Shown here piece by piece: positions 6,019-38,606 of a stretch of DNA of 43,276 nucleotides. The stretch comes from a virus. Taxonomy: Duplodnaviria > Caudoviricetes. Under the pieces are notes generated by a model. It had not been told where the DNA came from. It made no database searches and saw nothing but the letters and a program-made list of their open reading frames with translations. Location of the stretch: IMG/VR virus record IMGVR_UViG_3300005077_000078, positions 1 to 43,276 of that record. The stretch is one strand, 5' to 3'. Made by a program: the position numbers and the translations under genes. Each line of letters starts with the position of its first letter. Position 1 is the first letter of the stretch.

Positions 6019-6495
6019 GTGACGAAGATTTCCCAGATGCCGAAGCCGCGGGACCCGCTGATGCGGAAGATCCTGCTAATTGTGGGGTTCCTGGTGGTGG
6101 TGGCCGCGGTGGCGGCGTGGCTGGGGGTGGACAAGGCCGACGCCGAGCCGTTCGCCTACGCTCCGGCGGACCCGCCGGCGACGATGCTGGCTCCCGGCGA
6201 CTCGCTGCTGGACTTCGGGGCCACGTTCGGGTTCCTGCCGGACTGCCTCGTCGTCTACAGCCAGGACGGGGCGGCCTTCAACATGGCGACCGTCACGGCG
6301 GCCAGGGCCACGGAGGTGGGGGCCCAGTTCGTCGAGGCGAATGCGGACACCATCTGCACGGCCGTCGCCGACGAGGTGACGATGACGCCGGGGGCCGGGT
6401 ACGTCGATTACGGGAGGTTCCGGTGGTTGGTCGCCCCGCAGGGGGCCGCCGGCCGCGACACGCTCATCGTGAAGATGTATCGGCTCTGGAGGTAG
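6019..6495 (+). CDS. Signal-peptide or membrane-anchored beta-rich protein, 158 aa
   Basis: AGGAGG RBS. Basic n-region, h-region ILLIVGFLVVVAAVAAWLG, and ADA/E cleavage-like site. Confidence 0.8.
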   Translation: MTKISQMPKPRDPLMRKILLIVGFLVVVAAVAAWLGVDKADAEPFAYAPADPPATMLAPGDSLLDFGATFGFLPDCLVVYSQDGAAFNMATVTAARATEVGAQFVEANADTICTAVADEVTMTPGAGYVDYGRFRWLVAPQGAAGRDTLIVKMYRLWR

Positions 6496-9400
6496 GTGAC
6501 CATGCGCCGTCTGCCGCTTCTGCTGACCATTCTCGGTGCCGCGGCGGCAGCCATGCTGTGCGCGTTCGTCAACCCGTCCGGGGTCGGACCGGTAGCCGGG
6601 ATCGGCCCGGCGTCCTTCGGCGTCTCCCAGAGCGACACCAACGCCGTCCACGTCCCACCGGAGGAGCCGGAGGAGCCTGCACCGCCCGAGTGGCTGGCCT
6701 TCGACGCCGGAGGCGGAGGCTGGCTGCACTCCGGCGCGTTCTCGCTGTCCGATCCAGACGAGATCATGATCGGCGCGGACGTCAACGGCGCGTGGATCAC
6801 CTACGACGCCGGGCAGTCTTGGGTGCCAGCCAACGCCGGGTTCTCCAGCTACTCGTCCGACGCGACGGCGTTCTACGTCGATGAGATCGTGGCGATCCCC
6901 GGAGGGTTCGTCGCCGCCACCCACCAGGGAATGTTCCGCTGGACAGACGCCGACTCGTCGTGGTCGCCGATGGGCGAGAAGTTGTCCTGGATCCGAGACT
7001 ACTCCTGGGGCGACGTCGAGCAGCCGATCCCGTTCAGTTCTGTCTGCTGGGACGGCAACAACAAGCTGTTCGCCGGTGCCGGCCGCACGCGCAGCGGCAG
7101 CGAGACCTCCGAAGATTTCGGATCCGCAATCTACCCGTCAGCGTTCATCTCCGCGGAGGCCAACGGCGACCCAGTCGGGGCGGCGTCGGTCTGGTGCTAC
7201 GACCTGTCCGAGGAGGACGGGCTCTGGCGTCCCTGGGTTCCTGCCTCCACCGACACGCTTCAGATTGGCGGAGTCCGCGACGTCGCCGTCACCTACACGG
7301 CCCTGGGCGACACGATTGTCGCGGTTTGCAGCGGCAGCGCCCTGGCCGTGTTCACGGGCAGCGACTGGGTGGACGCCGAGGCCGACTGGGACTGGCGTCC
7401 CTCCTGCACGGGCTTCAGCGGCACGATGTCGGCCTCGTTCGCAGCCGACGGCACCGGGTTTTCGCCGTGGACAGTCTCACTTGCCGCACGCACCGTCGTC
7501 GTAGGAGAGGACGAGTTCGAGTGGGTCTCTCTCTACGCGGGAATGGCGCAGGACAGCGGCGACGTTGTGCGCCTGCGGGCTGGCGTCTACTACAATTCAG
7601 ACGTGGTCGCCTCGACAGAAATCAAGCGGGTCATCGGCTCGACGGTTAACCTCTCGCCGTACACGACGCGCATGGATACCTGCTACTACGGGGCTGTGAT
7701 GGGGAGCGGTGCGACCGTCCACAACGGCCGTGTTGACGCCCGCTGGGCCGAACTGCTACCGGCCGCCGTCGGCGTGAGCGTGGACACGCTGATCGTAGGC
7801 GGCCGTAACGGATACGTTGGCCTGCACAAGATCATCTACGACTACCAAACTGCTACGGTCGCCAGCGCGACAGCATTGCAGCGGTCTACCAGCACCGACA
7901 ACGACGTCGGGTTCGACGACGGCTGGCTGAACACATGGGGCAGCAGCAACATCATGCCGCCGGTCATCTGCTCGACCAACCACGGCCGCATCCTGACGCA
8001 CACCAACGCGAGGCTGGAGCTGACAACCAACGGAGGCTCGACGTTCAGCGGCGTCTGGACCGATTCTCTGCTGGTTGGCGACGAAACGTACTGGACGGGG
8101 CGCGGTTGGAACGAGATGGCCGTGAACGCCGTAGCCTCGCTGCCCACCGGCGAGATCGTCATGGGGTGCGCCGACACGGGCCTGTTCATCAGCAACACGG
8201 CGCATACGGGGTGGCAATGGCATCGCGTCCCCGTCGAGTCTGTCACCTCTGGCGCGGACACTCTCAACACCAGCGGGTATGCGTGGTCGCTCGACTGCCG
8301 CGACCTGGCCGTCATCGACGACTGGCAGGAGACCGGACGCCCAGCCATCATCGCCATCATGGGGTCCATCAGCACAAAGCCTACGAAGGTGATGATGCTG
8401 CACGACAGCGACGACGACGGCGACTGGGACTGGAGCGATGTCTCGCGTGGGACGATGGGTGTCGGCCCCGGCGACGAGACATACAGGCGGTTCTCGAAGC
8501 TAGCCATCGGCGGCGACGGCACCGTCTACGCCGCGTTCACCCGCTACGACGGCATCGTTGGAGATGACGGCGCGTCCCAGGTGGCGTGCGGCGTGGACCG
8601 CTTTGTCTACGATTACGGATGGACTTGGGCCGACCACGAAGATGTGGCTACGCAGATCCCGAACACCGGCCTCATCGGGGACATCGTCTGGTCGAAGACT
8701 GCGAACGACCTGTTCCTGGGCCTGAAGTACAGCGGTACCACGGGCGGCATCTATCGCTGCGCCCTGCCGGACTCGGTATGGTCCCTCGCCTACGGCGGGA
8801 ACACCATCGACTTCCTCGACATCCAATGCCTCGCCACCACCCCTGGCGGCAGCGTCGTGTACGCCGGCAACAGGGGCAGGAGTGGTGGAGGCTTTGCCAC
8901 GGTGCTTCGCTGCGACAACCCCCAGAGCGCGGCGACTGCGTGGGTACCGATGTTCAACAACGACAACCGCGACAACATCGAGTGGGGCATCACGACATAC
9001 TCTGACGGGTGGACGGTCCCTGACTCCCTGTCTGCCGCCAGGCTGTTCGCAACCGTGTCCTCCATTGCCGTCGCCGAGTGGGACAGCACGGAGGTTTTGT
9101 TCTCGGTCAACGCCAGCGGGATCTGCGCCGGTAACGGGCTGTACCGCATCAAGCGCAGCCACGTCGAAAAGCTGTCGGACGGGCCCGTCGAAGGGTACGG
9201 GGGGACGTACCTGTACACTTACGACGGTGCCGCGTATATCGGGACAAACGGCGGCGGCCTATGGAGGCGGCTGAATGACCAGCCTGCGGTGCCAGAGTTC
9301 ACCGAGACGATCCTTGCCATCGGCGATCCGTACTCCAGCGGCACTCTGTACAACCCGACCGGAATGACGCCGACGAGGACGGTCGTCGCAGACTCGACGA

Positions 9401-10092
9401 AGTGGCGACATGCCTTCGTGGACTATACCTACGGGACTCCTGGGCCTCGCGACTCGCTTTATCAGGCCGCGTACCCGATGGTCATCCAGCAGATCACCCA
9501 CCCCGCGTATACGCAGCGCACCAACCAGCGGTGGTGGATGACGTGGTGGGACCTCTCCGAGGTTCCGGACTCGTCGCAAGTCATCAGCGCGAAGATCAAC
9601 TTCGACGTGTACTACGCCCTCGGATCTCACGCCTACAACCAGTTCGAGGGGGCCTACGCCGTCCTGGACACGCTCTCGTCCGACCGAAGGTGGATCCAGT
9701 CGTCGGCAGCCCAGTCTCTCGTCAGGCACAGGTACAGCAACACGTCCTGGCTGTACATAGACCGCCTGCTCGACACGGCATGGAGCCCCACGCTCGTCAA
9801 CAGGAACAACGTCTCGACGTGGGGCATCGTTTCGCCCCTAGCGCACGACGTGACCGGAGTCACCAACGTGTTCGCCTCCGGCGACGACTTCGTGATCGAC
9901 GTCACATCGCTGCTTCAGTACTGGGTCGATCACCGCACGCCGCTCAACCTGCGGCAGGCTGGGTTCCTGATCTGCGGGTACGACAGCGACGGAGGAGCCG
10001 GAGGATCGTACTTCCAGGTGAGGACAGGGATTGCTTTTACCTACGAGACCTTGTCCCCGTCCCTGATCGTCAAGTACAGGGTCCAAGACTGA
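6496..10092 (+). CDS. Large exported protein: beta-propeller (BNR/VPS10/sialidase-like) plus C-terminal DNRLRE/CBM96-like domain
   Basis: Signal peptide MRRLPLLLTILGAAAAAMLCA. Asp-box-like motifs ITYDAGQSW and LTTNGGSTF, and YIGTNGGGLWR closing the propeller. C-terminal WDLSEVPDSSQVISAKI...IDVTSLLQYWV...GFLI...PSLIVKY. Confidence 0.8.
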   Translation: MTMRRLPLLLTILGAAAAAMLCAFVNPSGVGPVAGIGPASFGVSQSDTNAVHVPPEEPEEPAPPEWLAFDAGGGGWLHSGAFSLSDPDEIMIGADVNGAWITYDAGQSWVPANAGFSSYSSDATAFYVDEIVAIPGGFVAATHQGMFRWTDADSSWSPMGEKLSWIRDYSWGDVEQPIPFSSVCWDGNNKLFAGAGRTRSGSETSEDFGSAIYPSAFISAEANGDPVGAASVWCYDLSEEDGLWRPWVPASTDTLQIGGVRDVAVTYTALGDTIVAVCSGSALAVFTGSDWVDAEADWDWRPSCTGFSGTMSASFAADGTGFSPWTVSLAARTVVVGEDEFEWVSLYAGMAQDSGDVVRLRAGVYYNSDVVASTEIKRVIGSTVNLSPYTTRMDTCYYGAVMGSGATVHNGRVDARWAELLPAAVGVSVDTLIVGGRNGYVGLHKIIYDYQTATVASATALQRSTSTDNDVGFDDGWLNTWGSSNIMPPVICSTNHGRILTHTNARLELTTNGGSTFSGVWTDSLLVGDETYWTGRGWNEMAVNAVASLPTGEIVMGCADTGLFISNTAHTGWQWHRVPVESVTSGADTLNTSGYAWSLDCRDLAVIDDWQETGRPAIIAIMGSISTKPTKVMMLHDSDDDGDWDWSDVSRGTMGVGPGDETYRRFSKLAIGGDGTVYAAFTRYDGIVGDDGASQVACGVDRFVYDYGWTWADHEDVATQIPNTGLIGDIVWSKTANDLFLGLKYSGTTGGIYRCALPDSVWSLAYGGNTIDFLDIQCLATTPGGSVVYAGNRGRSGGGFATVLRCDNPQSAATAWVPMFNNDNRDNIEWGITTYSDGWTVPDSLSAARLFATVSSIAVAEWDSTEVLFSVNASGICAGNGLYRIKRSHVEKLSDGPVEGYGGTYLYTYDGAAYIGTNGGGLWRRLNDQPAVPEFTETILAIGDPYSSGTLYNPTGMTPTRTVVADSTKWRHAFVDYTYGTPGPRDSLYQAAYPMVIQQITHPAYTQRTNQRWWMTWWDLSEVPDSSQVISAKINFDVYYALGSHAYNQFEGAYAVLDTLSSDRRWIQSSAAQSLVRHRYSNTSWLYIDRLLDTAWSPTLVNRNNVSTWGIVSPLAHDVTGVTNVFASGDDFVIDVTSLLQYWVDHRTPLNLRQAGFLICGYDSDGGAGGSYFQVRTGIAFTYETLSPSLIVKYRVQD

Positions 10093-10105
10093 AAGGAGCA
10101 TCGTC

Positions 10106-10174
10106 ATGCGTAAACTGATCCTCATCAAGACGGCCTCCAGCGACACGGTTCGCTACGTTCTGTACAAGGACTAA
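10106..10174 (+). CDS. 22-aa mini-ORF MRKLILIKTASSDTVRYVLYKD, possibly an internally deleted exported-protein gene
   Basis: Strong AAGGAG RBS. It fills the gap between two genes. Confidence 0.45.
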   Translation: MRKLILIKTASSDTVRYVLYKD

Positions 10175-10193
10175 CGCTGCACGGAGGGCCGGG

Positions 10194-10475
10194 ATGACGC
10201 AAGAGCAGCGCAAGGGACTCACGTTCTCGCGGGAGATCCGCCTGAGCGAGGTCATACAGATCATCCTAGTCCTGGTCGCCATCGGCGGCTGGGCGGTGCG
10301 AACCGAAGGCAAGATCGAACAGGTGGCGGCCGACGGCAGGGCCAATGCAGAAAGCATACAGTCAGCAAACGAGGTCCAGAAGGAGACGGCCGGAATCCTG
10401 CGGCAGATCCAGGAACAGTTAACCAAGACCCGCCTGGCTGTGGCGCAGTACCACGGAACCGAGGCGCTGAGATGA
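10194..10475 (+). CDS. Single-TM protein with C-terminal coiled coil (holin/XhlA-like architecture)
   Basis: TM segment VIQIILVLVAIGGWAV followed by a heptad-like tail. GGAGG RBS. Confidence 0.65.
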   Translation: MTQEQRKGLTFSREIRLSEVIQIILVLVAIGGWAVRTEGKIEQVAADGRANAESIQSANEVQKETAGILRQIQEQLTKTRLAVAQYHGTEALR

Positions 10476-10681
10476 AGCCGCTCGGCAGCAAGGTCCTCAC
10501 GGACATCCAGAAGAGACTGCGCGGCGGCTCGCAGTCGTTCATGCCGTTCTCCCCGGCGAAGGGCGCGACATTCACGTCATTCGCCAAGGGAGTCACCGGC
10601 AAGAGGATGCGCAATTACATCACGCCGAGGCAGAACCCGAATTTCTCTGGCCTGAAGCACTTCGGAGGCGGTTTCAAGTGA
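10472..10681 (+). CDS. Small basic hypothetical protein, 69 aa
   Basis: Overlaps both neighbours by 4 nt. Confidence 0.6.
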   Translation: MKPLGSKVLTDIQKRLRGGSQSFMPFSPAKGATFTSFAKGVTGKRMRNYITPRQNPNFSGLKHFGGGFK

Positions 10682-12075: not shown

Positions 12076-14012
12076 TGTCCATCGACATCAGCAGCAACAG
12101 CAAGCTGTCCATCGTCAAGCACGTCAGCGAGCAGTTCCGCGACCTGCTCCAGGACAGGCAAGAAACGCAGCAGACGTGGATGCGGTGCATCCTGGCCTAT
12201 CTGTGCCAGTTCGACAAGGCGTGGGCCAACGCGGCCAAGGCCGCCAACAGGTCGGCCCGCTACGTCCCCGTGACGTTCGACAGCATCGAAACCGTGCTGG
12301 CGCAGGCGGCCGACATCATCTTCGGCAACGACGAGTGGAACAAGGTCCTGCCGGCGTTCTACGGCGGCAACGACAGGACCGACGACGAGTACGCCGCGGT
12401 CGTCACGAAGTTCATGCGCCACCAGTTCGAGGCCGGCGGCTTCTACGAGATGGCCGACATCGGCATGAAGCAGCTTCTGCTGGTCGGCAACTGCCCGTGG
12501 TCGATGCGCTGGAAGGTCAAGAAGGCGGCAGATTTCGGGCAGTACCGCAAGGCCCTGGCGGAGTGGGAGAAGGCCAGGGCCGAGTACGAGAGCAACTACG
12601 CGGTGGCGATGCAGCAGTACCAGGCCATCATGGACCTCGCCAAGATGACTGGCATGGTGCCGCCGCCGCCCCCGCAGATCGCGCCACCTCCGCAGCCGCC
12701 GGTGAACTCGAGGACCATCTTCGAGGGCCCGGTGCCGGTGATCGGTGACATCTTCAACTACGTCGAGGAGCCGTTCCCCGGAGACCCGGAGGAGGCGTTC
12801 AGGGCCCACCGTACCTGGCGCTCGAAGGAGTACCTGCGCAGGGTCTCCAAGCCGAACGATGACGGGTACCGCCTGTACGAGGGCATCGACGCGATCACGG
12901 GCGGGGAGGATCGGGCCGCCGCCGAGGGCAACCAGGAGGAGAACCTGCTGCGCATCGCCCTGGGTCAGAGCGTGAACGTGCGCAAGCCGAACGACGTGGA
13001 ACTCATCCACGCCGAGGGGACGTTCGAGGTGCCAACGGCCGACGGGTACGAGACGTTCGAGAACTACGTCGCCGTCGTCGCCAACGGCCAGCACCTGATC
13101 AGGTTCGAGAAGACTCCGCTGATCAGCGGCCGGCGCACCCTGAACAACGCAAAGCTCATCCGCATCAACGGGTCCCAGTACGGTATTGGCATCATCGAGA
13201 AGGCTCTGTCGGAGCAGGACTCCGTCAACGCCATCCACAACCAGGTGATCGACGCCGTGCATTGCGTCATCCAGCCGGAGTACGCGAGGGTCCGAAACAG
13301 CGTGACGTCGCCCAAGCCATCGGGGCCCGGCCAGGTCCACGACATGGCCGACCAGGGCGACATCATGCCGTTCCAGAAGAACTTCTCCGGCATCCCCCTC
13401 GGCAGCGCCGAGGTCAATGCAGCCATCGGCCGCTTCGAGCGCGTTACCGGCGCGATCAATACGGCACCCCAGGGCAGGGGCCAGGAGTCTGCCACCAGGA
13501 CCGCACGCAACGCCAACATCGTCCAGTTGAAGCTCGGCAAGTGGACCCGCGCCATCGAAAAGGACTTCATCCAGCGCATGGTGCAGACGATGATCGACAT
13601 GAATGCCCAGTACATCGGCGAGGAGAAGATGTTCCGCATCTCCCAGACCGACCCGAGCGGGCAGTCGTGGATGAAAATCAGCCCCGAGGCCCTGTCCAAG
13701 GGGTGGCTGTGCGAGATCGCCAGCACGCAGTACGTCATCGACAAGCAGGAGCGCATCCAGAACGGGATGGCGTTCTTGCAGATGGTCAGCCAGCCCGTGT
13801 TCGTGCCGGCCATCGAGTGGCAGAAGCTGCTAGAGCAGCTCTCCGAGGACATCATGGGCCGCCGCGGTAGCGGCATCGTGAAGTCCGGGCCGGAGATCGG
13901 CGAGCAGATGAACCAGATCGCGCTGATGGTGGCAGGGCTGATCACGCCGCCGTCGGAACAGCAGCCGGAGGGTGAAGGTGGAGATCCAGGTCAGCAAGGA
14001 GCGCCTGTTTAG
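12075..14012 (+). CDS. Portal protein
   Basis: Directly after terL, about 645 aa. YGIGIIEK...Q..VN.IHNQ.ID and ESATRT motifs as in P22/N4-like portals, with a Q/E/G-rich tail. Confidence 0.88.
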   Translation: MSIDISSNSKLSIVKHVSEQFRDLLQDRQETQQTWMRCILAYLCQFDKAWANAAKAANRSARYVPVTFDSIETVLAQAADIIFGNDEWNKVLPAFYGGNDRTDDEYAAVVTKFMRHQFEAGGFYEMADIGMKQLLLVGNCPWSMRWKVKKAADFGQYRKALAEWEKARAEYESNYAVAMQQYQAIMDLAKMTGMVPPPPPQIAPPPQPPVNSRTIFEGPVPVIGDIFNYVEEPFPGDPEEAFRAHRTWRSKEYLRRVSKPNDDGYRLYEGIDAITGGEDRAAAEGNQEENLLRIALGQSVNVRKPNDVELIHAEGTFEVPTADGYETFENYVAVVANGQHLIRFEKTPLISGRRTLNNAKLIRINGSQYGIGIIEKALSEQDSVNAIHNQVIDAVHCVIQPEYARVRNSVTSPKPSGPGQVHDMADQGDIMPFQKNFSGIPLGSAEVNAAIGRFERVTGAINTAPQGRGQESATRTARNANIVQLKLGKWTRAIEKDFIQRMVQTMIDMNAQYIGEEKMFRISQTDPSGQSWMKISPEALSKGWLCEIASTQYVIDKQERIQNGMAFLQMVSQPVFVPAIEWQKLLEQLSEDIMGRRGSGIVKSGPEIGEQMNQIALMVAGLITPPSEQQPEGEGGDPGQQGAPV

Positions 14013-14232: not shown

Positions 14233-14247
14233 ACCGAAGGAGTGGTC

Positions 14248-15215: not shown

Positions 15216-16292
15216 ATGCAGACGTTAGCCAATCTCCAGACGATGGACATCGACCAGAACAGCGCCGCGCTGCCCCTGGTCACGCGGGTCTTCTACAACA
15301 AGACCTACCTGTCCGTCGCCATGCCCCTGCTCCTGCACGACCAGTTCGGCGTGCCCTCGACGCTGCCGAAGAACAGCGGCGAGTCGGTCATGTGGCGTCG
15401 CTTCAAGAAGTTCGCCCAGGTCAGCAACACGCTGACCGAAGGCGTCACCCCGACCGGCAAGACGCTCGAGTTCGAGAACGTCGTCGCGACGGTGAAGCCC
15501 TACGGCGACTTCGCGATCATCACCGACTGGGTGGACTTCATCTTCGTCGATCCGATCATCAGCAAGACCATCGAGCGTCTGGCCGAGCAGTCGGGCGAGT
15601 CCCTGGACAGCGTCACCCGCGACATCATCAACGCCGGCACCAACCTGTACCGCGTCACCGCGGACGGGTCCTCGCCGACCTGGGGCGTCGGGGCGCGGAC
15701 GACCGTCAACGGCACGCTGAACAAGCGGGTCCTGGACGCCGTGATCACCGCCCTGGTGACCGCGGAAGCGAAGATGACGATGGGCCGCATCGGAGCGAGC
15801 CCGAACACCGACACCCAGCCGGTGGACGTGGCCTACCCGTGCATCATCCATCCGCACATCACGCACTCGCTGTTCCAGTCGGATTCCGGCCTGACCGGCG
15901 ACCACGGGTTCCTGCCCCGCGAGCGGTACGGCAACACCGCGGCCCTGTACAAGGGCGAGGTCGGCAAGTACCGCAACGTGCGCTTCATCGAGACGACCAA
16001 CGCGAAGGTGTGGGCGGACTCGGGCGGCGGCACCAACGTCGGGACGACCTCGGCGGCCACCTACCGGTCCACGACCGGCACGCAGGCGGACGTCTACTCC
16101 TGCCTGGTCATCGGGAAGGAGTCCTACGGCGTCACCAAGCTGGCCGGCTACAGCCAGACCTACGTCGAGCGCAGCGGCGGGAACAGCGACCCCCTGCACC
16201 AGCGCAACACGGTCGGATGGAAGGCGGCCAAGACCGCCGTCATCCTCGAGGACGCCTGGATCGCTCGCATCGAGGTCGCGGCTCTCTGGTAG
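15216..16292 (+). CDS. Major capsid protein, N4-gp56 family
   Basis: LPKNSGESVMWRRF, LTEGVTP, YGDF..ITD, IIHP, GEVGKYRNVRFIET and SDPLHQRNTVGWK. Confidence 0.93.
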   Translation: MQTLANLQTMDIDQNSAALPLVTRVFYNKTYLSVAMPLLLHDQFGVPSTLPKNSGESVMWRRFKKFAQVSNTLTEGVTPTGKTLEFENVVATVKPYGDFAIITDWVDFIFVDPIISKTIERLAEQSGESLDSVTRDIINAGTNLYRVTADGSSPTWGVGARTTVNGTLNKRVLDAVITALVTAEAKMTMGRIGASPNTDTQPVDVAYPCIIHPHITHSLFQSDSGLTGDHGFLPRERYGNTAALYKGEVGKYRNVRFIETTNAKVWADSGGGTNVGTTSAATYRSTTGTQADVYSCLVIGKESYGVTKLAGYSQTYVERSGGNSDPLHQRNTVGWKAAKTAVILEDAWIARIEVAALW

Positions 16293-16782: not shown

Positions 16783-17262
16783 ATGAACGACAAGAAGACA
16801 GTCATCGTCGAAGAGGACCTCGAGTCCCAGCTTCTCGAGGAGGAGGCTCGCCGCGGCCGCCCGAAGGCAGTCGTGGTCGAGGAGCCGCCGGCCCCGCAGT
16901 TCTCCTTCAAGGAGGGCAAGCCGCTGCCGGAGGGGTTCGAGAACCCCCAGAAGGGCGAGGCCGGTCACAAGTGCCTGGACCCCCAGGGCAACTACCAGCC
17001 GACCTGGTACCAACTGAAGCTGGCGAAGGTCTTCGACCACCAGCAGAACCCGCAGTTCGTCGGCTGCGGGGACCAGGCGTACGGCGTCCCTCTGGACGTC
17101 TGGGTGGACGTGCCTCCGGGGGTCGTCAACGTGCTGCTCGACGCCGTCGAGACGCACCACGAACAGGTCGTCACGCCCGAGAGTCTGCTGCTCGGGAGAA
17201 GGCCGACGCACATCACGCGGTCGCGCAGCCGTTTCATGTACCAGACCATCGCGTCCGCGTAG
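16783..17262 (+). CDS. Hypothetical morphogenesis protein, 159 aa
   Basis: GGAGG RBS. FVG.....Y.VP....VDVP..VV.VL.DAV pattern recurrent in phage head/tail modules. Confidence 0.7.
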   Translation: MNDKKTVIVEEDLESQLLEEEARRGRPKAVVVEEPPAPQFSFKEGKPLPEGFENPQKGEAGHKCLDPQGNYQPTWYQLKLAKVFDHQQNPQFVGCGDQAYGVPLDVWVDVPPGVVNVLLDAVETHHEQVVTPESLLLGRRPTHITRSRSRFMYQTIASA

Positions 17263-17271
17263 GAGGTCGAG

Positions 17272-20200
17272 ATGAAGGCCCTGCTGAAGATTGCCGCCGC
17301 CTTGATCATCGTCGTCATGACCCACGCTTCGGCGTATGGGCAGACGGCTACGAATCGATACGAAGACGTTGTTCGCAACTCCCGCGGAGACGTCATCGGC
17401 GGGGCCTCCATTTCCGTGTACTACCGCAACACGACCACGCTGGTCGATACCCTGTACTCGACCCAGTACGGGATGCCTACGGCCACCAAGCGGAACCCGA
17501 CCTCCACCGACACGATGGGCAGGTTCTGGTTCTACATCGAGCCAGGCGTTTACGACATCAAGATCAGCGGCAACGGGATCACGACGTACACGCTGGAGGA
17601 CGTGGACCTCTCCGGCGGCACCGGGCGCGACCCGAACGACCCGCAGTTGCTGTTCGGAGAGGGGCCGCCCACGGGCGACTACCCCATCGGCTCCCTCTAC
17701 CAGAGAACCGACGCTACCGCGGACTCGCTGATCTACTTCCGCAGGAACGGCCCGGAGTGGTGGGCGATGCCGGTGCCCGAAGACCGCAGCGGGTCCCAGT
17801 ACGCGCCCGCCAGCGACACCAGCCCCGATGTCGGCGGCACCGACTACCTGATCTTCAGCAACAGCGAGCCGACCCCGGTTACCTACTTCGACAACGGCGA
17901 AGACGGCCAGCTGCTGTCGGTCCTGCTGACGGAGAACAACACCGCGCTGGTGCCAGGAAGGACAGGCCAGAACGAGATCGCCCAGCCAGAGCTGCTGGAG
18001 GGAGTCGGCACCTACGCGGTCTACCGGTACAGCGAGGCCACCCGCTCCTGGTACCTGATCTACAATTCCCACGTCACGGCAGACGTCGCCGATGGCATGT
18101 ACCTGGACGACTGGGCCCCGACCGGAACCTCGGGAGACGGGACCCTGCCCGTGCTGGTCTACCCGGACATCTGGCAGACCTGGGACCCTGACGCTCCAGC
18201 GCCCCTGTACAACCTCCTGAGTGGCGTCTGCCGCGAGGATTTCGGATCGACCGTGCAGCTATCATTGCAGGTCATTGCCGATGAGCCGGTGCAGATGGCC
18301 GCCCAGATCCAGCGTACCCGCGACGGCGAGATGGTGACCCTGACCCCGATCATCAACTACTCGGGCAGCTATACCGACCGCCCGTTCCTGCAAATGGCCA
18401 CCGACTCCACATGCGTGGATGGCGACCTTTGGCGCATCCTGTACCAGCTTTCCAACACCGACGGCATCCAGTCGCCCTGGTGGATCGGCGGTTACCACAC
18501 CGTCGTTGTGGACGAGGACGATGATCCCGTCTACGCGGAACTCGTCGGAGATGTCTCCTTGATCGGGACTTGCGCGACGACCGTGACCCTGGACGCGGCG
18601 TTCACGACCAACATCCCCGCCAAAGCCACCGCCCGCTGGACCGTCGCCGGAACCGGCGACACCTTGACTGTGCCGATTGAGAGCGAGTTCTCGACCGCCC
18701 ACAACATCGTCGTGGACACCGACTCGACCTGCACCTCCTACAAGTACTTCGACTTCTTCTTCACGCTGACCAACGAGGACCTCGACACCGGGCCCGAGTA
18801 CGGTCCCTACCGCTACACCGTTGATCCGGGCAGCACCGACCTGACTCCGCCTAACGAGGCAGACTTTGTCGCACTAAGCGGCCAATGCGTCGAACTCTCT
18901 CCGCGTGCGCTGCTTCAGTTTGGGGCCACCGCCGGGGAGCTGTCCTATATCGGCGTGCGCTGGAACCTCAACGGCGGGACCTGGAATGTGTTCCCGGCAG
19001 GAAACGACTTCGCCACCGATCACGGGCCATTTACAATCGACACCGGAACGCAATGCGCCGCCGACGACGAGTACTTCGTCGAGTACCGCTTGACCGACGC
19101 ATTCGACAACACCAGCGACTGGTTCGACGGTGGCTCATGGGTCGTCGATTATGAGGAGCCGGACGAAGACACGACACCTCCCTTGATCAGCGAGGAGGAG
19201 TCGTATGTCTACGGGACCGTGGACAGCGGATACGCTAGGCTAACTGTCGCAATCGAGTGCGACGAGAACTTTCTCGCCAACTGCACGGCGTATACGACCG
19301 GCGGCGACAACGAGATTACCTTCACGATGCCCGAGTACACCGTAGTGCCGATCTTCGATAACCCCGTGCATCGGAACATCACCACCATGACGCCAGTCCG
19401 CGACGGCCAGACCTGGTACGTTACCTGCGACCTTGTTGACGAGTCCGGTAACTTCCGCGGAGACAACTACGTCGGCAGCTTTACCTACAGCCTCTCTGCG
19501 ACGGTTGGCCCCGAGGTCACGGGGGTTCAGGGCACCATCGACGACGGACAGACGGTGATCATCAGCGGTTCCGAGTTCGGCGTGAAGTCCCCGGCCGCCC
19601 CGTATACCTGGGACCGGATCGACAACATCGCCGCTCACAACGCGACCGCTGACGGCGCGATCATGCCTTACAACGGTTCCTACATGTGGCAGGCGAGCCC
19701 GCAGGGCATCGAGTACAACCCCCCGTGGCGCGTCGGCAAGTCGGTCCACAACGACTACGGAGGGATCGGGCCGCGCCAGACCGGGGTCCCGTACTACTAC
19801 CAAGGCTGGAAGACGGCCATGTCGCGGCCTGAGCTGCCGACCTCCCATGAGCGGTGGTTTTTCAACTGGTGGACGTGGACCGACGACACCGACACGCGGT
19901 CCAACGCCGACTACTCTTCGTCGTCCAAGTACATCCGGCTGTACGAGACTGCCGACGTTCAGGCCAGCCCATGCAACGGCCACACCTACATGATCACCAA
20001 CGGCAACGGTGCGATTACAATCTGGGACCGCGACGGTGACGGGTTGCCGGACCCCGACCAATGGGGAAGCTGTAGCAACCACACCTACGGCGGCGATGCC
20101 TGGAACCACGGGACCGACTATCTCGGCAGCCCCCAATGGGTGAACATCCAGGTTCTGGTGGATTACACCGAGGCCGACCACGGTCTCGGGATTCTGCAAG

Positions 20201-21909
20201 AGTGGATGAACAACCACCTGTGCGTTGACCGGCAAACAATGACGCAGGGATATGACTCGGACGGCAACGAGACTGTCGGCCGCGAGTACGGGTTCTGCCA
20301 TGTCTACGACTTTGGCTATGACGCCGTCTCGCATTCGCCAGATCATGACAACACCAAGCATTGGGGCTTTTCGCATATTTACATCGACACCACGATGGCC
20401 CGCGTGTTCATCGGCGACGAGAGCGCCTACGCTTCGTGCAGCCACATCGAGATGCAGCCTCCGGCTACCTGGTCCGACGGCTCGATCTCGGTGCAGCTCA
20501 ACCAGGGCACGTATGCCGACGGCGAGCTGTCGTACCTGTTCGTCGCCAACGCCGACAACGAGATTTCTGCCGGGTTCCCCGTCGTATGGGGTGAGGTGGG
20601 CGGTAATAACGGCGGAGGCGAGGAGGACGACATCGCGCCCTGGATCTTAGATGTCGGGTTCTCGCTGACAACCGCCCCTTACGGAGACGGCGTGTTCCCT
20701 GACTCTCTGGCAATCGTAAGCCATTTTACCGCGTCTGAGCCCGTGACTGTTGTGAACCAGTACGCCATCACGGGAGTCAACGGGGTGCCGGAAATGTGGT
20801 ACTGGCTGCCTGCCGACACTACTGGCACCGAATCGACCGTTCTGGCTACCAATGTCGTGACCACCGCCTATACGGCCGAGTCTCACGCAGACGACGTAGA
20901 CTTCTTCATGCACTATGCCCTGCAAGACGCGGCCGGGAACCGCAGCGGATGGCTGACCCCTCTGTCCGCCTTGGGCGGGCACCATACCGGAGTCCCCGAG
21001 GAAACGGAGCCCGTGGCTGTGGACTCGGTATTCTGGACGTTCGCCTACAACACGTCCGCCAGCCCGATTGATTATCGACACCCGATCTGGGGCGGGACGA
21101 AGTATCAGACCGAGGGGCAAGTCTTCTCCGACAGCCTCTACTACTTCTGCTGGGACGCCAGGCAGCCGACCGCGACTGCCGACCGGGTGTTCAGCTACTC
21201 GTCGTACTCCTTCGGCGGCTACTCTAGCCCGCTGACCGGGGGCCTGGACGCGGCCGAAGACACCAGCCGCGTTGCCTTCGTCGGCATCGCATCGGCCGAC
21301 CGCCTTTCCGGCCTCGGGCAGTACATCGTCGAAGCCAAGTACTACTTCCGCTCCCGCGACGGGGCTGGCACGCATCCTTACTTCTTCACGCCGGAGCCGA
21401 ACTTCTACGCCGCCGCAGTCTGCACAGCCAGCGCCCTGTTCGACGCAGAAGACGTCACGATGCGAAACAGTTCTCCGTATAACTACTTCCCGAACAACAT
21501 CAGCTACACGGCTTGCGAAGGCCCTGAGTTCGGCTCCTGGAACCCGCCAGACTTCGATGAGCTTGCCGCCTACGGGCTCGGCGACAGCATCCAGCTGTCC
21601 GTGGCCCAGGGTACCTGGTACGTCCAGGACATCACCGAGGAGCTGCAAGCCTGGTACAACAGCACAAATGAAAGAGGCATCATCCTCGCTCAGATGGGAT
21701 GCGTGCCAGGAACGGTCGCGCCTCCAGACTACTGCTACGCCGACTTCAGCCCCTGGAGGTCCTCGACGTCGTCCTCCCGTCCGATGCTGTTGGTGAAGCT
21801 GGCGATCCCGCAGGACTTGCACATCCCGGTTGGTGAGCCGCTGCCGATCCCGACGCCGGGCGGCGGCAAGAACCCGACTCCAGTCGAGCCGCCCGGAGGT
21901 GGTGAGTGA
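17272..21909 (+). CDS. Modular fibre/adhesin-like protein with N-terminal Sec signal peptide, 1545 aa
   Basis: Signal peptide MKALLKIAAALIIVVMTHASAYG. Spike-anchor-like domain GASISVY...NP.STD..GRFWFYIEPGVYDIKISG, and fibre motif GEGPP...GSLYQRTD. About five Ig/FN3-like units, an IPT-like domain with a large insert, and a DNRLRE-like C-terminus (QDITEELQAWY...GIIL...RPMLLV). Confidence 0.8.
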   Translation: MKALLKIAAALIIVVMTHASAYGQTATNRYEDVVRNSRGDVIGGASISVYYRNTTTLVDTLYSTQYGMPTATKRNPTSTDTMGRFWFYIEPGVYDIKISGNGITTYTLEDVDLSGGTGRDPNDPQLLFGEGPPTGDYPIGSLYQRTDATADSLIYFRRNGPEWWAMPVPEDRSGSQYAPASDTSPDVGGTDYLIFSNSEPTPVTYFDNGEDGQLLSVLLTENNTALVPGRTGQNEIAQPELLEGVGTYAVYRYSEATRSWYLIYNSHVTADVADGMYLDDWAPTGTSGDGTLPVLVYPDIWQTWDPDAPAPLYNLLSGVCREDFGSTVQLSLQVIADEPVQMAAQIQRTRDGEMVTLTPIINYSGSYTDRPFLQMATDSTCVDGDLWRILYQLSNTDGIQSPWWIGGYHTVVVDEDDDPVYAELVGDVSLIGTCATTVTLDAAFTTNIPAKATARWTVAGTGDTLTVPIESEFSTAHNIVVDTDSTCTSYKYFDFFFTLTNEDLDTGPEYGPYRYTVDPGSTDLTPPNEADFVALSGQCVELSPRALLQFGATAGELSYIGVRWNLNGGTWNVFPAGNDFATDHGPFTIDTGTQCAADDEYFVEYRLTDAFDNTSDWFDGGSWVVDYEEPDEDTTPPLISEEESYVYGTVDSGYARLTVAIECDENFLANCTAYTTGGDNEITFTMPEYTVVPIFDNPVHRNITTMTPVRDGQTWYVTCDLVDESGNFRGDNYVGSFTYSLSATVGPEVTGVQGTIDDGQTVIISGSEFGVKSPAAPYTWDRIDNIAAHNATADGAIMPYNGSYMWQASPQGIEYNPPWRVGKSVHNDYGGIGPRQTGVPYYYQGWKTAMSRPELPTSHERWFFNWWTWTDDTDTRSNADYSSSSKYIRLYETADVQASPCNGHTYMITNGNGAITIWDRDGDGLPDPDQWGSCSNHTYGGDAWNHGTDYLGSPQWVNIQVLVDYTEADHGLGILQEWMNNHLCVDRQTMTQGYDSDGNETVGREYGFCHVYDFGYDAVSHSPDHDNTKHWGFSHIYIDTTMARVFIGDESAYASCSHIEMQPPATWSDGSISVQLNQGTYADGELSYLFVANADNEISAGFPVVWGEVGGNNGGGEEDDIAPWILDVGFSLTTAPYGDGVFPDSLAIVSHFTASEPVTVVNQYAITGVNGVPEMWYWLPADTTGTESTVLATNVVTTAYTAESHADDVDFFMHYALQDAAGNRSGWLTPLSALGGHHTGVPEETEPVAVDSVFWTFAYNTSASPIDYRHPIWGGTKYQTEGQVFSDSLYYFCWDARQPTATADRVFSYSSYSFGGYSSPLTGGLDAAEDTSRVAFVGIASADRLSGLGQYIVEAKYYFRSRDGAGTHPYFFTPEPNFYAAAVCTASALFDAEDVTMRNSSPYNYFPNNISYTACEGPEFGSWNPPDFDELAAYGLGDSIQLSVAQGTWYVQDITEELQAWYNSTNERGIILAQMGCVPGTVAPPDYCYADFSPWRSSTSSSRPMLLVKLAIPQDLHIPVGEPLPIPTPGGGKNPTPVEPPGGGE

Positions 21910-21910
21910 C

Positions 21911-22669
21911 ATGACGATCAGCGTACAGCAAACTCCAGGGACCAGGACATTTCTGGAGTGCGTCCAGCGGGCGCTCAGGTCCATCGGGGAGTTGCCGCCG
22001 GCCACTCTCGTCGGCCCGAGCCCCCGCGTGATGCTGGCGATGCAGGCTGTCGAGGACGCGAGGGACGAGATCTTCTACCACGCGACGTGGTGGTTCCGCC
22101 GCGCCTTCAAGGTTGTCAACCTGGTCGCCGACACGCCGTGGTACCAGTTCGAGGATGACTTCCAGGACTTCCTCACCAGGCCGACGAAGAGCAACCGCTT
22201 CTACTCCCCTCTCGAGTTCAAGACGTGGGAGCAGGTCATCGAGCTGTTCCCGGAGATGAGAACGGCTCCTCCTGGCACGGCCGGCAACGACCTGACGACC
22301 GTGTCGCAGTTGTCGGCCATGACGTACTTGTTCGGCGAGCCGTACCTGTACACCAGGGTCAACGACTACATGGGGGTATTCCCGATCCCCACCGAGGACG
22401 CCATCGCGGCCTCTCCGAACCTGGTGTACTCGTACCTCACGCACTCGGTGCCGATGACGTCGGACAGCGACCTCACGGGCCTGCCGAGAAACCTGTGGCT
22501 GGCCCACAGCTTCCTGTCGAACGCGAAAGTCAAGCTCGCCGCCGAGTTTGCGGACTGGCAAGTGGACGAGGCCAAGGGCAACGATCAGCTTCGCAAGGTC
22601 ACGGCGATGTCTGGGTCCATCGTCCAGTCGGACAACACTCAGGGCCACCTGATCAACTACAACGAGTAG
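21911..22669 (+). CDS. Head-tail adaptor (tail tubular protein A-like)
   Basis: TFLECVQRALRSIGE...V.DA..EI...WWF N-terminus and its position before the nozzle gene. Confidence 0.75.
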   Translation: MTISVQQTPGTRTFLECVQRALRSIGELPPATLVGPSPRVMLAMQAVEDARDEIFYHATWWFRRAFKVVNLVADTPWYQFEDDFQDFLTRPTKSNRFYSPLEFKTWEQVIELFPEMRTAPPGTAGNDLTTVSQLSAMTYLFGEPYLYTRVNDYMGVFPIPTEDAIAASPNLVYSYLTHSVPMTSDSDLTGLPRNLWLAHSFLSNAKVKLAAEFADWQVDEAKGNDQLRKVTAMSGSIVQSDNTQGHLINYNE

Positions 22670-22676
22670 GCGGTAG

Positions 22677-24350
22677 GTGATGCTGGGCTACGAGGAGCGG
22701 TCTTCAGGGCTGGAGATGTTCAACTTCGGGGGCCTCGACACAAGGCACTCCGAGCTTGCGTTGCCAGACAACTCCAGCCCGAGGATGGCGAACGTAGACC
22801 TGGTCTTCGGCGGCATCAGCAAGCGGGACGGAGCCGACCTCATCGAGGCGCTCGGGTACACCGTGTCCCACATCGCGCCCCTGTTCATCCAGGAGACGGG
22901 CGTCGGGTTCCTGTACTTCTTCTGCCGCAAGACCGGCCAGGACGCCAAGGTGTTCCGGACGCCGATGCCCGGCACATTCTCCCTCACGGAGATCCCGCCC
23001 CCGGACGGCGAGACGTACCCCTCGGATCCCGACGTGATGGCAGTCAGGGCGAACTACGACGCCGCGCCGGCCCTCTACCTGCCGCGCAGGAACGGCATCC
23101 CCATCGTGTTCGCGGGGGCCGCGGCGGCCAGCGACGCCGCCCTGATGCGTGCCGGGGAGTACGGGGACGGGGAGATTGGCTCCGGGACCACCGGGTACCC
23201 GGAGGACTGGGACGACAGCCCTCCGTCCGTCATGCGGGTCATGGGCTTCGGCAAGGGATCGCGGCTCTATGCCGGCGGATTCGCCGACGACCCCAGCCGC
23301 TACGACTACAGCGAGATGGACGTCCACAACAACTTCCTTCGCCACGACGTCGATGACCCGGAGCAGGTTGACGCCGCGCTGGACGGCGGGTACGCATACG
23401 CCAACAATGGCGACGACGACATCATCGTGGACTTCTTCGACATGTACTCGTACCGGGTCATTGCGAAGAAGAGGTCGCTGGTACTGTACACGGGAGACCC
23501 TGGTGCCGACGATCTGAACCAGGTCGCCACGTTCGCCGTCGGCTGCGTCGGCGTCCACGCCTGGGCCAAGGTGTCGAACGACGTGTTCTTCTGGTCCGAA
23601 GACGGGCCGCGCAGGATGTCGTCGGTGCAGGAATACGGAGACCTCGTCCACTCCAACATCGCCGAGACCAAGATCAAGGCGGACGTTCTGGCCGTTCTGC
23701 CGTCCTCGTTCGCTAACATCCGGTGCATCCACGACACGGCCCGCTCCAGGGTTGTCTGGTACATTCCGCAGTACGGGGCGCAGGAGAACACGGTAGGATT
23801 CGCCTACTACTACGCCGAAGACAGGTTCGCGAAGATCACCGGCCCGTCCGGCCAGATCACGGCGTGCCATCTTGTGCGCACCGACAGCGGCACGTCCGGG
23901 AAGTGCATCGGGGCCGACTCCTCCGGGAACATCGTGTGGATGTTCACGTCGAACTCCGACTCCGGCAACCAGGACATCGACGCCGAGTACGTCACCAGGT
24001 GGATGTTCAACAACGGAGACATCGGGTGGTCGTCGCACGGGATCTACCTCGACGTGGTCTTCAACGACGACGGCCGCGGGGATTGCAAGATCTACTACGA
24101 GGTCGATATGTCGGGGCAGTTCATCGAACTCACCCGCGGCACCAAGCTGCACGGCGGCGGTGGCGGCGTGTGGGGCTCCGGTTTGTGGGGCGACGGCGGC
24201 GTGTGGGGCGAGTCCTCTCGCGCCTACGTCAGGTTCGAGTTCACCGCGCTCTTCAGCATGATCAGGCTGAAGTTCGCATCAAATTCAGCAGTAAAGTGGG
24301 GCGTCATGGGGTTCAGGCTCGATGCGAGAAGCAAGGGGGCCAGAGGATGA
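22677..24350 (+). CDS. Tail nozzle (tubular protein B / P22 gp10-like)
   Basis: N-terminal FGGLDT...L....SP.M.NV, VGCVG...W......FFWSEDG beta-propeller motifs, about 557 aa. Confidence 0.8.
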   Translation: MMLGYEERSSGLEMFNFGGLDTRHSELALPDNSSPRMANVDLVFGGISKRDGADLIEALGYTVSHIAPLFIQETGVGFLYFFCRKTGQDAKVFRTPMPGTFSLTEIPPPDGETYPSDPDVMAVRANYDAAPALYLPRRNGIPIVFAGAAAASDAALMRAGEYGDGEIGSGTTGYPEDWDDSPPSVMRVMGFGKGSRLYAGGFADDPSRYDYSEMDVHNNFLRHDVDDPEQVDAALDGGYAYANNGDDDIIVDFFDMYSYRVIAKKRSLVLYTGDPGADDLNQVATFAVGCVGVHAWAKVSNDVFFWSEDGPRRMSSVQEYGDLVHSNIAETKIKADVLAVLPSSFANIRCIHDTARSRVVWYIPQYGAQENTVGFAYYYAEDRFAKITGPSGQITACHLVRTDSGTSGKCIGADSSGNIVWMFTSNSDSGNQDIDAEYVTRWMFNNGDIGWSSHGIYLDVVFNDDGRGDCKIYYEVDMSGQFIELTRGTKLHGGGGGVWGSGLWGDGGVWGESSRAYVRFEFTALFSMIRLKFASNSAVKWGVMGFRLDARSKGARG

Positions 24351-33674: not shown

Positions 33675-35307
33675 CTTCATGGCCCGCAACCCGATCCGCG
33701 ACATGGCTCACGCGGCGATCATCGCCAACTCGCTCATCGCCAGCCCGACCGACGTCTTCAAGCTGCCGTTCCTGATCATGGACGGCATGCGCGAGGCGAT
33801 CCGCCAGGGCTCCACCTGGCGCGAGTGGGTGATGACCGGAGGGCCGGAGTCGGAGATGGTGGCCCCGGACCTGGCCGCGGTGCGGTCGAAGACCGAGGAC
33901 TTCGTCAGGGGCCGCGGGGCCGAGGCGCGGGAGTACGCCCGCAAGCACCCCGGCAAGTTCATCCTGGCGCACAGCCCTGTCAGGCTGCTGCAAACCATCT
34001 CGATCAAGACCGAGCAGGCTACCCGCCTCGCCGTCTACAAGAAGGTTAAGCGGGAGCTTCTCTCCCATGGATTCAGCCTGGAGGAGGCCAAGTTCAGGGC
34101 GATGATGGAGAGCCGCGAGGCCAGCATCGACTTCGCCACCCACGGAACGCTCGGCCGGTACGTCAACACCGCGATCCCGTTCTTCAACGCCGGGGTGCAG
34201 GCCCAGGACAAGATGTGGCGCACCCTGATGCGCGACCCCAACAAGGGCGCGGCCTGGACGAAGGCCGTGCTGATGATCATGATGCCGTCGATGCTGCTGT
34301 GGTGGAAGAACCACGACGAGGAGTGGTACAAGGACCTGCCGTACTGGATGAAGAACATGTTCTGGGTCTTCAGCCCCGACGGCGGCAAGACGGTCGTGAA
34401 GATCCCGAAGCCGTTCGAGCTTGGCATGATCTTCGGCAGCTTCCCGGAGCGGCTCGCGGAGTACTTCAACAAGGAGGACCCCGACGCTGTCAAGCGGTGG
34501 ATGGACGACTGGACGGACTCGGTGATCACGCTCAATCCCATCGAGCTTGCCGGCCCCATCGCGTTCACGCTCACGGAGATGAACTCGAACTACGACAACT
34601 TCCGCGACAACCCCATCGTGCCGGAGTACATGAAGCTGCTCGAGGACCGAGCCCAGTACGACGCAAACACCAGCGAGGCGGCCAGGTGGATCGGCGAGGT
34701 CATGCCCGGCAAGGGCGTGAGCCCGATGATGCTCGACCACCTGGTGGAGGGGTCTCTCGGCGGGACCGGGCGCTACCTGATGGACATCGCCAGCGCGGCG
34801 ATCATGGCCGCCGATCCGCGTCGCCGCGAGCGCAGGGCGGACAAGCCACAGGTCTTCGGGTTCATCCCGTCCAACGCCCCCGTCGTCCGGGCGTTCTTGC
34901 AGGACATGCCCGTCACCTACTCGGCCCCCAAGGACCGCTTCTACAAGCTGTACGAGCGTGCGCTGTCGTCGAATAACACGCTCCAGATGTACATGAAGAC
35001 CGGAGCCGACACCAACCTCACGGCCGACCTTCTGCGCAGGCAGGGGCTCGAGATCGCGATGTACCCGATGATCGCAGGGGCGGCGGCCAAGATGGCCGAC
35101 CTCCAGCGGGCCCGCCGCGCCATCATCAACGCTCCGGCCACCATTCTGACGTCGCGCCAGAAGGACGAGGAGATCCAGAAGATCGACGAGGCCGGCAACG
35201 CGATGATCAGAGTCATCGACGCCGAGTTCACCAAGCAACTGCAAGGCGGCAGCAAGTACCGCGACCAGATCAGGGCCGCTGCCGACATGATCGAGAGGAG
35301 CAGGTAA
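33250..35307 (+). CDS. Giant polyvalent protein, C-terminal part with LPD38-like domain (first ATG at 33319)
   Basis: REASIDFATHG, IPFFNAGVQ, Y.DLP.W.K..FW, VKIPKPFELG and SP..LDHL..G.LGGTG. The frame is open and codon-optimal from about 33250. Confidence 0.8.
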   Translation, partial: LKVEKSQTFKETYSRSIKRIYEEMGIADMEDGDQKTGALREAREQAHGEATFAAMPEFLAKLEEMGLEGIDSGLTGFQKIWAISSIQEAGMFAVIRNSKVEYYKGDPEIMELFGSFEKMPEFMKYFAKQTALLRGGAVLTPDFMARNPIRDMAHAAIIANSLIASPTDVFKLPFLIMDGMREAIRQGSTWREWVMTGGPESEMVAPDLAAVRSKTEDFVRGRGAEAREYARKHPGKFILAHSPVRLLQTISIKTEQATRLAVYKKVKRELLSHGFSLEEAKFRAMMESREASIDFATHGTLGRYVNTAIPFFNAGVQAQDKMWRTLMRDPNKGAAWTKAVLMIMMPSMLLWWKNHDEEWYKDLPYWMKNMFWVFSPDGGKTVVKIPKPFELGMIFGSFPERLAEYFNKEDPDAVKRWMDDWTDSVITLNPIELAGPIAFTLTEMNSNYDNFRDNPIVPEYMKLLEDRAQYDANTSEAARWIGEVMPGKGVSPMMLDHLVEGSLGGTGRYLMDIASAAIMAADPRRRERRADKPQVFGFIPSNAPVVRAFLQDMPVTYSAPKDRFYKLYERALSSNNTLQMYMKTGADTNLTADLLRRQGLEIAMYPMIAGAAAKMADLQRARRAIINAPATILTSRQKDEEIQKIDEAGNAMIRVIDAEFTKQLQGGSKYRDQIRAAADMIERSR

Positions 35308-36068
35308 TGGCAATCGACAGAATGGGCGAGGTGGCCGAGTTTCTCACGTCCTTCGAGAACGGCCAGACCCACGACGCCACCCCGGTCATCGGCAACGACG
35401 TCGCGCTGCGCGGGCAGGACATCGTGGCGGCCAGCAAGATCAACGAGCTTGTGGACGCCTCGAACGCGAACGAGACGGCCATCTCCGACGAGACCGACCG
35501 TGCCACTGGAGCCGAGGAGGCCCTGGGCGACAGGGTGACCGTGCTGGAGGGGGTGTACGGGGGCGACTTCCCGGACGGCGTCACGGCCGGCGAGACCGAC
35601 CAGATCTCTGTCGGCGTGATCGACGGGTACATCACGGGGGTGGACAGGATCGACCACCTCACCATCAACGACGACAACGAGCTTGGCCCGCAGGACCTTC
35701 CGGACGACTGGGCTGGGGCGAAGGAGGACGAGATCGTGACCGTTGCCGCGGTCCAGCACTCCTACGGCCACCAGATCAACACCACCGCTACCCTCAGCGG
35801 GTCGGGAGCCGTCGTCCTGCCCGAGGCCAACTACAGGCACAAGACCATCATCATCCCCGCGGCGACGTCGATCACCAATATCACGCTGCCCGACGTCAAC
35901 ACCGTGCCGGACGGCGTCCGCTGGAGGTTCCTGAACCTGAGGTCCGGAACCGGCTCTCTCGTCACACTCTCGAACGGCGTCGAGCTTTCCACCAACGAGT
36001 GGGTGACCGTAGAGAAGCTGCTCAACGCCTACTACTGCCTCGAAAACGGATCGGTGGTGACGTCGTGA
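35307..36068 (+). CDS. Short tail fibre/spike-like protein
   Basis: SKINELVD, coiled coil ETDRATGAEEALGDRVTVLE, and C-terminal ITLPD.....G..W.F.N beta domain. Confidence 0.6.
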   Translation: MAIDRMGEVAEFLTSFENGQTHDATPVIGNDVALRGQDIVAASKINELVDASNANETAISDETDRATGAEEALGDRVTVLEGVYGGDFPDGVTAGETDQISVGVIDGYITGVDRIDHLTINDDNELGPQDLPDDWAGAKEDEIVTVAAVQHSYGHQINTTATLSGSGAVVLPEANYRHKTIIIPAATSITNITLPDVNTVPDGVRWRFLNLRSGTGSLVTLSNGVELSTNEWVTVEKLLNAYYCLENGSVVTS

Positions 36069-38603: not shown

Positions 38604-38606
38604 GTC

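Follow-up and report, generated by a model that had tools for sequence, protein, structure and literature searches.

The usual view is that tailed virions reach completion inside the cytoplasm, ahead of lysis, and the known spikes of the P22/Pam1 type assemble from the cytoplasm. The locus described here raises the question of what a secretory leader is doing at the start of an anchored fibre gene in the structural operon of a podovirus-like phage. The window, that is, the whole stretch of DNA analysed, is the entire IMG/VR viral record IMGVR_UViG_3300005077_000078 (43,276 bases; completeness estimate 96%), and the gene in question, hereafter the target, is a forward-strand open reading frame (ORF) of 1545 amino acids (aa) at positions 17272-21909. 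The answer that we favour, with moderate confidence, is that the target encodes an exported fibre/tailspike-type protein whose anchor docks on finished particles at lysis.

The sequence-only reading had described a 1545-aa gene between the capsid genes and the tail adaptor, with an AGGAGG ribosome-binding site and a leader running from MKALLK to AYG/Q, and the ORF, the duplex energy and the leader call all agree with this description. The spacing from AGGAGG to the ATG is 5 nucleotides (nt), and pairing with the anti-Shine-Dalgarno sequence gives the annotated start -10.9 kcal/mol, versus -1.0 and +0.6 for two in-frame alternative leader starts; the gaps between the target and its neighbouring genes are 9 and 1 nt. 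Leaders were called with a simple heuristic rule (a script), not with SignalP. By this rule, the target shows the features of a substrate of Sec and signal peptidase I (SPI), namely a positive n-region (net +2), an uncharged hydrophobic h-region (mean hydropathy 3.3 over 10 residues) and small residues at -3/-1, with candidate cleavage sites at 19, 21 and 23. Of the 31 window genes tested, the rule picked out five, namely the target, the pair of genes ahead of the terminase, one spanin-like gene and one small gene of membrane-like character; it was negative for the terminase, the portal and scaffold genes, the capsid gene, the adaptor, the nozzle and the ejection genes. Thirteen proteins were screened for a lipobox or Tat motif, and none had either; the target has no membrane-like segment past the leader (highest 19-residue hydropathy 1.22). 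Two further ideas were rejected: a leaderless isoform made from an internal start, as no conserved start backed by a Shine-Dalgarno sequence was found at the leader end in 10 genes, and a rule requiring Gln at +1, as Gln stands there in the window protein only, among nine clade members.

Behind the leader, three successive motifs had been proposed as anchors. Only the first (aa 24-114) held up, so that the plural "anchor modules" was an overstatement; the second (aa 120-168) is a mobile module located mid-protein or C-terminally in relatives, and the third (aa 177-266) is shared with just three close relatives and one unknown PHROG, its model being of low confidence. A 12-sequence profile of aa 24-114 searched against the PDB matched the head-binding domain of the Pam1 tailspike (7EEQ, E 1.1e-4) and the Pan3 tail spike (9VYG, E 0.006). 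The domain was modelled with a predicted local distance difference test (pLDDT) score of 83-97, and its best VIA structural match among 48,161 chains was again 7EEQ (Z 9.7, root mean square deviation 2.4, 83 aligned residues), with the P22 and Sf6 head-binding domains at Z 7.4-7.6 and the XM1 and A-1(L) neck proteins at Z 6.3-6.7. Against viral models, the anchor gave 40 matches at E<=0.001, including tail spikes and depolymerases. PF13620 scored 32.1 bits on it (cut-off 32.3), single-sequence phmmer against the PDB gave 0 matches, a viral scan with aa 24-273 gave none, and tblastn of the window anchor against cultured phages gave one weak match.

Leader and anchor were found in the same slot in all eight distinct sister phages (9/9 including the window), which share the gene order and swap the cargo behind the anchor, the sister slot proteins ranging from 303 to 961 aa (one partial). 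The syntenic homologs thus keep the signal peptide, and the sequence-only reading came through this comparison without refutation. Three sister phages were first found through the anchor and five through the capsid, adaptor or nozzle; a weak nozzle match (L077) and eight distant capsid matches (L003-L010), which belong to other groups and have no anchor match, were left out of the clade. Mean identity among the nine was 56% for the anchor, 48% for the capsid (7 rows), 39% for the adaptor (7 rows), 38% for the leader and 22% for the cargo. Cargo replacement behind an anchor that is better conserved than the capsid is what one would expect of a component held by a partner that itself changes little. 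In several relatives the cargo is a beta-helix matching the tail-spike PHROGs 2234/7458.

The anchor family extends far beyond this clade. A deep search returned 11,716 representatives at E<=0.001, and the best 150 of these comprised 135 with a leader, 10 leaderless (one with a truncated start), 3 multi-repeat proteins and 2 unclear cases, a ratio that is biased because the search profile held nine leader-bearing and three leaderless rows. A tree of 43 anchors needs five leader changes, its well-supported branches being compatible with a single origin. One leaderless anchor (L012) matches 34 cultured-phage records, many of them annotated as tail spike or fibre, and some leaderless anchors are stand-alone genes of 117-126 aa in structural operons. 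At two such loci (L011:9983-18086 and L012:4951-7582; anchor gene of 117-125 aa), separate leader-bearing beta-helix, LamG and protease/lectin genes adjoin, an arrangement that is possibly a two-piece version. A further, large family, for which NCBI sources give the name Acidobacteria, carries the gene between its adaptor and nozzle genes, with a Cys pair within the anchor; it occurs partly on long contigs of up to 3.6 Mb, probably as prophages. Five of its loci (L013, L016, L017, L026 and L027, about 9700-13700) hold a widespread and conserved element of podovirus-like type, whose leader-plus-anchor gene spans about 1100-1400 aa; this element may be a prophage or may have been domesticated.

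These comparisons bear on the best-surviving rival explanation, according to which export takes place but the protein never joins the virion. It would instead act in soluble form, in the periplasm or after release, as a receptor mask, a decoy aimed at competing phages or a protein that binds or degrades matrix, and the old anchor would serve only as a trimerisation or folding cap. Anchor-less exported genes sharing the TIG module upstream of the terminase in the same phages would suit such a factor, as would the presence of a leaderless fibre/needle candidate, and signal peptides are reported on 5% of prophage carbohydrate-active enzymes, tail proteins excluded, in the available part of PMC13507307. 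We nevertheless regard it as unlikely, since conservation of the anchor exceeds that of capsid and adaptor despite the cargo replacement, the gene keeps its place between the head genes and the adaptor in 9/9 phages, and the stand-alone leaderless anchors of structural operons suggest a role in attachment.

The cargo itself consists of several modules. Five repeats of about 105 aa each were recognised by internal similarity, and we take them, from a motif, to be of the FN3/Ig type. In a full-length relative (P0002, 40% identical), 9 of the 19 target Cys are conserved, including all of the pairs 320/381, 434/487 and 539/595 in the first three repeats. The split TIG domain with its insert is likely the ligand-binding part; the insert gave a low-confidence model, identity to P0002 falls to 15-22% over aa 801-1100, and look-alikes are often viral stand-alone proteins. 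The second and third N-terminal modules and the TIG module gave no match as single-sequence queries. The CBM96 likeness of the C-terminal domain comes from language-model features (Atlas score 0.95 to CBM96 clusters) and is a lead only, with no match in Pfam or NCBIfam. No beta-helix or tail-spike family match was found in the target (P0001) or its thirds, such matches being present in relatives; the target protein is fibre-like and not a classical tailspike. One relative (P0168) bridges the two types, with the same leader and anchor and a tailspike-type beta-helix joined to the target's repeats and TIG module.

Cysteines and glycosylation motifs bear on whether the leader is used. An anchor with at least two Cys was found in 101 of the 135 leader-bearing representatives and in 1 of the 10 leaderless ones, the latter being the truncated start call. 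The motif D-[ST]-[AILVMT] marks non-cytoplasmic glycoproteins in Bacteroidota, according to the available part of PMC12871550. It was enriched about twofold, being observed 53 times (31.5 expected) in the nine slot proteins, 41 times (18.3) in five exported proteins encoded upstream of the terminase, and 175 times (89.4) in 29 near representatives, 24 of which were above expectation. A set of 36 genes without a leader, taken from the same phages, showed no enrichment (29 vs 43.3), nor did 18 leaderless anchor proteins (27 vs 32.2; 5/18 above expectation). Two control motifs, E[ST]x and [ST]Dx, were likewise not enriched; a third control, N-x-[ST], was mildly raised in the slot proteins (83 vs 62). 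The enrichment hints at an FCB-type host. A host search in GTDB with the nozzle and anchor profiles gave no matches, and the bin names given to relatives at NCBI disagreed with one another (Nanopelagicales, Propionibacteriaceae, Actinomycetota, Xanthomonadales) and were not used.

Export is well supported because the leaders are kept with divergent sequence in 9/9 phages, no conserved internal start exists, the repeat Cys are paired and conserved, and the glycosylation motif is enriched clade-wide; the target protein is thus very probably exported and cleaved through Sec, as predicted from its sequence. A second rival holds that the hydrophobic N-terminus goes unused for export, acting as an inner-face membrane tether or being clipped, and that the fibre is added in the cytoplasm. 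Such a course fits textbook assembly, and the leader calls are heuristic, but it appears quite improbable given that leaders in relatives end in small-residue cleavage motifs directly ahead of the anchor, that anchor Cys and the motif excess go with leader-bearing proteins, and that an internal start is missing. The weakest rival, a Lom/Bor-like cell-envelope moron altering the lysogen surface, can draw on the signal-peptide gene lom between lambda tail genes (available part of PMC12309495), on the likeness of the cargo to secreted adhesins and on the probable Acidobacteria prophages, but is very improbable in the light of the missing lipobox and membrane-like segment, the absence of tyrosine (PF00589) and serine (PF00239) integrases from three of three genomes (the window and two with terminal repeats), the lack of a visible sigma-70-like promoter of its own ahead of the gene, and a third-position GC content (GC3) of 0.89 in the anchor part, similar to the neighbouring genes. 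The same lack of lipobox, membrane anchor and integrase weakens the earlier alternative of a fibre domesticated as a cell-surface protein; the carrier phage may have a plasmid-type lysogeny.

Of the route first proposed from the sequence, export has stood, on the 9/9 leaders, the Cys pairs and the motif enrichment; docking on virions at lysis we infer, and consider reasonably probable. The Sec leader would direct the protein to the periplasm and be cleaved there, after which the protein would fold, form disulfides in its repeats, be O-glycosylated by a Bacteroidota-type host system and assemble into trimers. Lysis would then mix the compartments and allow the anchor to clamp onto finished particles. 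Late docking is made plausible by the ability of P22 tailspikes, and of several decoration proteins, to attach to completed particles in vitro. The most likely site would be the adaptor-nozzle junction, where the fibres of cyanopodophage A4 dock (available part of PMC12002296), or the neck; the capsid or the leaderless 253-aa protein encoded downstream would be alternatives. For binding to the host surface, the phage would likely gain the use of disulfide and glycan chemistry, together with adhesin domains from the pool that its host secretes.

Several observations weigh against an exported fibre that docks on virions. With regard to the anchor, the top PDB sequence match of its profile is human NOMO2, the cellular transthyretin-like domain of carboxypeptidase D reaches Z 8.8 (a tie within 1 Z of 7EEQ), and Foldseek against the PDB returned nothing at E<=0.001, its output being swamped by antibody chains. 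NOMO2 and dioxygenases match the profile through shorter or repeated alignments, and the worry that the N-terminal domain might resemble cellular domains only was not borne out, phage head-binding domains matching as well as cellular ones. Given the near-tie, the head-binding domain is assigned because fold, motif and context concur: although cellular proteins share the fold, the family itself is an anchor of phage fibres and spikes. With regard to export, the motif count of the target alone (13 vs 8.0) is not significant (134 of 2000 shuffles), the excess is absent from pooled long Acidobacteria representatives (25 of 51; 79 vs 97.6), from the Tunturi phage protein discussed below (9 vs 8.7) and from gp085-gp087 of phage phi18:3, and the sequences counted are related to one another. 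The classes hardly differ in Cys content (1.31% vs 0.95% and 0.91%), and the leaderless MyoSmar tailspike has 15 Cys. With regard to docking, the same cargo modules also occur in exported genes lacking the anchor, the proteomic annotation of the phi18:3 proteins, which lack this anchor, could reflect co-purification, and each of three near-complete genomes has a leaderless fibre/needle-like gene of 205-253 aa, so attachment may not depend on the exported protein alone.

The features of the target and of its neighbourhood are collected in the following table.

Coordinates of the target's parts and of neighbouring genes in the window
Feature	Positions	Strand	Basis
AGGAGG ribosome-binding site, overlapping the upstream gene's stop	17261..17266	+	sequence; duplex energy -10.9
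Predicted Sec/SPI signal peptide, aa 1-23, predicted cleavage before Gln24	17272..17340	+	rule-based call
Head-binding-type anchor domain, aa 24-114, prealbumin-like fold, no Cys	17341..17613	+	profile, model, fold match
Mobile fibre module of ~50 aa, aa 120-168	17629..17775	+	placement differs among slot proteins; matches to unknown PHROGs through a relative
Small beta domain, aa 177-266	17800..18069	+	phrog_21413 E 2.7e-4; three close relatives; low-confidence model
Four Ig/FN3-like repeats, aa ~296-744, each with at least 2 Cys	18157..19503	+	internal similarity
Split IPT/TIG domain enclosing a variable beta-sandwich insert, aa 745-1112	19504..20607	+	VIA Z <=12.9 for the TIG halves
Fifth Ig/FN3-like repeat, aa 1118-1245	20623..21006	+	internal similarity
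CBM96/DNRLRE-like C-terminal domain, aa 1250-1520, then Pro/Gly tail	21019..21831	+	Atlas feature score 0.95
Two leader-bearing genes without anchor, upstream of the terminase (6061-6495, 6502-10092)	6061..10092	+	leader rule; equivalent slot in sister phages
Major capsid protein (context)	15216..16292	+	phrog_1357 E 8.5e-58
Tail adaptor, candidate docking partner, leaderless	21911..22669	+	9k09 tail tubular protein A E 6.9e-4; phrog_446
Nozzle-like tail protein, candidate docking partner, leaderless	22680..24350	+	PHROG tail/structural matches; synteny
Short fibre or needle-like gene, 253 aa, leaderless	35307..36068	+	phrog_4209 E 0.049; positional equivalents in G001, G002

The gene order of the window is podovirus-like, with the terminase at 10678, the portal at 12069, a scaffold-like gene at 14242 and the major capsid gene at 15216, followed by a small decoration-like gene (16348), a 159-aa gene and the target. 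Downstream of the adaptor (21911) and the nozzle-like gene (22680) lie an acetyltransferase-like gene, ejection proteins with a lytic transglycosylase, the 253-aa gene and the lysis genes; the scaffold, decoration, nozzle and ejection labels are based on position and weak matches. The 253-aa protein is a candidate alternative receptor-binding part or docking partner and may be either a needle or a fibre. A homolog search with it returned only itself, and its positional equivalents in the sister genomes G001 and G002 (205 and 233 aa) are 18-24% identical. The pre-terminase leader-bearing genes encode proteins of 144 and 1196 aa, the latter motif-rich, and in the sister phages cargo, including the TIG module, moves between this slot and the anchor slot. 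A giant ejection/polyvalent protein (SLT ... LPD38, 27045-35307) is split by a frame change near 33245-33350, which may be an assembly error or a real frameshift; its counterpart in G001 reads through without one. Other window genes include a methyltransferase (190-864, +), a TIGR03299 phage/plasmid protein (2352-3410, -) and a YqaJ-type exonuclease (37668-39497, +) with an adjoining recombination-like gene. In the distant genome L010, a homolog of the post-capsid decoration-like gene (7603-8013) has a classical-looking leader, eight closer homologs being without one; it was found with a profile of those eight leaderless homologs (E 1.4e-7 among 9728 frames), pairwise BLAST being negative.

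An export signal that is always present on the head-binding-domain protein of this clade implies a late finishing step outside the cytoplasm, which would let phages use disulfide- and glycan-dependent adhesin domains for host recognition; many "secreted auxiliary enzymes" of viral metagenomes would then be virion parts. More tentatively, at chances a little short of even, tailed phages may run a second, extracytoplasmic assembly line in which spikes and fibres with P22-type anchors, and in at least one phage (L010) a capsid-decoration-like protein, are secreted, disulfide-bonded and host-glycosylated in the periplasm and snap on at lysis. If so, glycans made by the host would be part of the virions, and particles released in one burst could swap appendages. 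The parts of this route are known already; the route itself has no description in the literature searched, where no paper on Sec-exported tailed-phage fibres was found, subscription literature being sparsely covered.

Among known systems, Pam1 (7EEQ), Pan3 (9VYG/9VYH), P22 gp9 and Sf6 gp14 share the anchor fold and motif and the podovirus adaptor/nozzle context with the target, and their beta-helix cargo with its sister phages. Unlike them, the target has a signal peptide ahead of the anchor, and Ig-like, TIG and CBM96-like cargo in place of a beta-helix. The tailspikes of Serratia phage MyoSmar and Idiomarinaceae phage 1N2-2 carry the same anchor family at the very N-terminus, but lack a leader and come from phages that differ in tail type and host. 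Lom of lambda and comparable envelope morons are, like the target, signal-peptide genes inside a virion operon (available part of PMC12309495), but Lom is an outer-membrane beta-barrel without a virion anchor. Proteins gp085-gp087 of Cellulophaga phage phi18:3 (NC_021794) have classical leaders, and the record annotates them as structural/tail from tandem mass spectrometry (MS/MS) proteomics; they show no match to the target anchor and no motif excess, and by analogy are the nearest experimental hint. The same architecture is seen in gp12 of Tunturiibacter phage Tunturi 1 (PP887698), a cultured podovirus of Acidobacteriota (PMC11924767, in whose available text the terms "signal peptide" and "mass spectrometry" have 0 occurrences). 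In this phage, five of six consecutive post-adaptor genes (gp12-gp17; L060:8857-18216) have leader-like starts, namely gp12, gp13, gp14 (annotated as tail spike), gp16 and gp17. Like the target, gp12 combines a leader with the same anchor and adjoins the adaptor gene, differing in its anchor Cys, its lack of motif excess and its other cargo. Because this cultured phage has the leader-plus-anchor design, the reading of an exported fibre that docks at lysis is directly testable.

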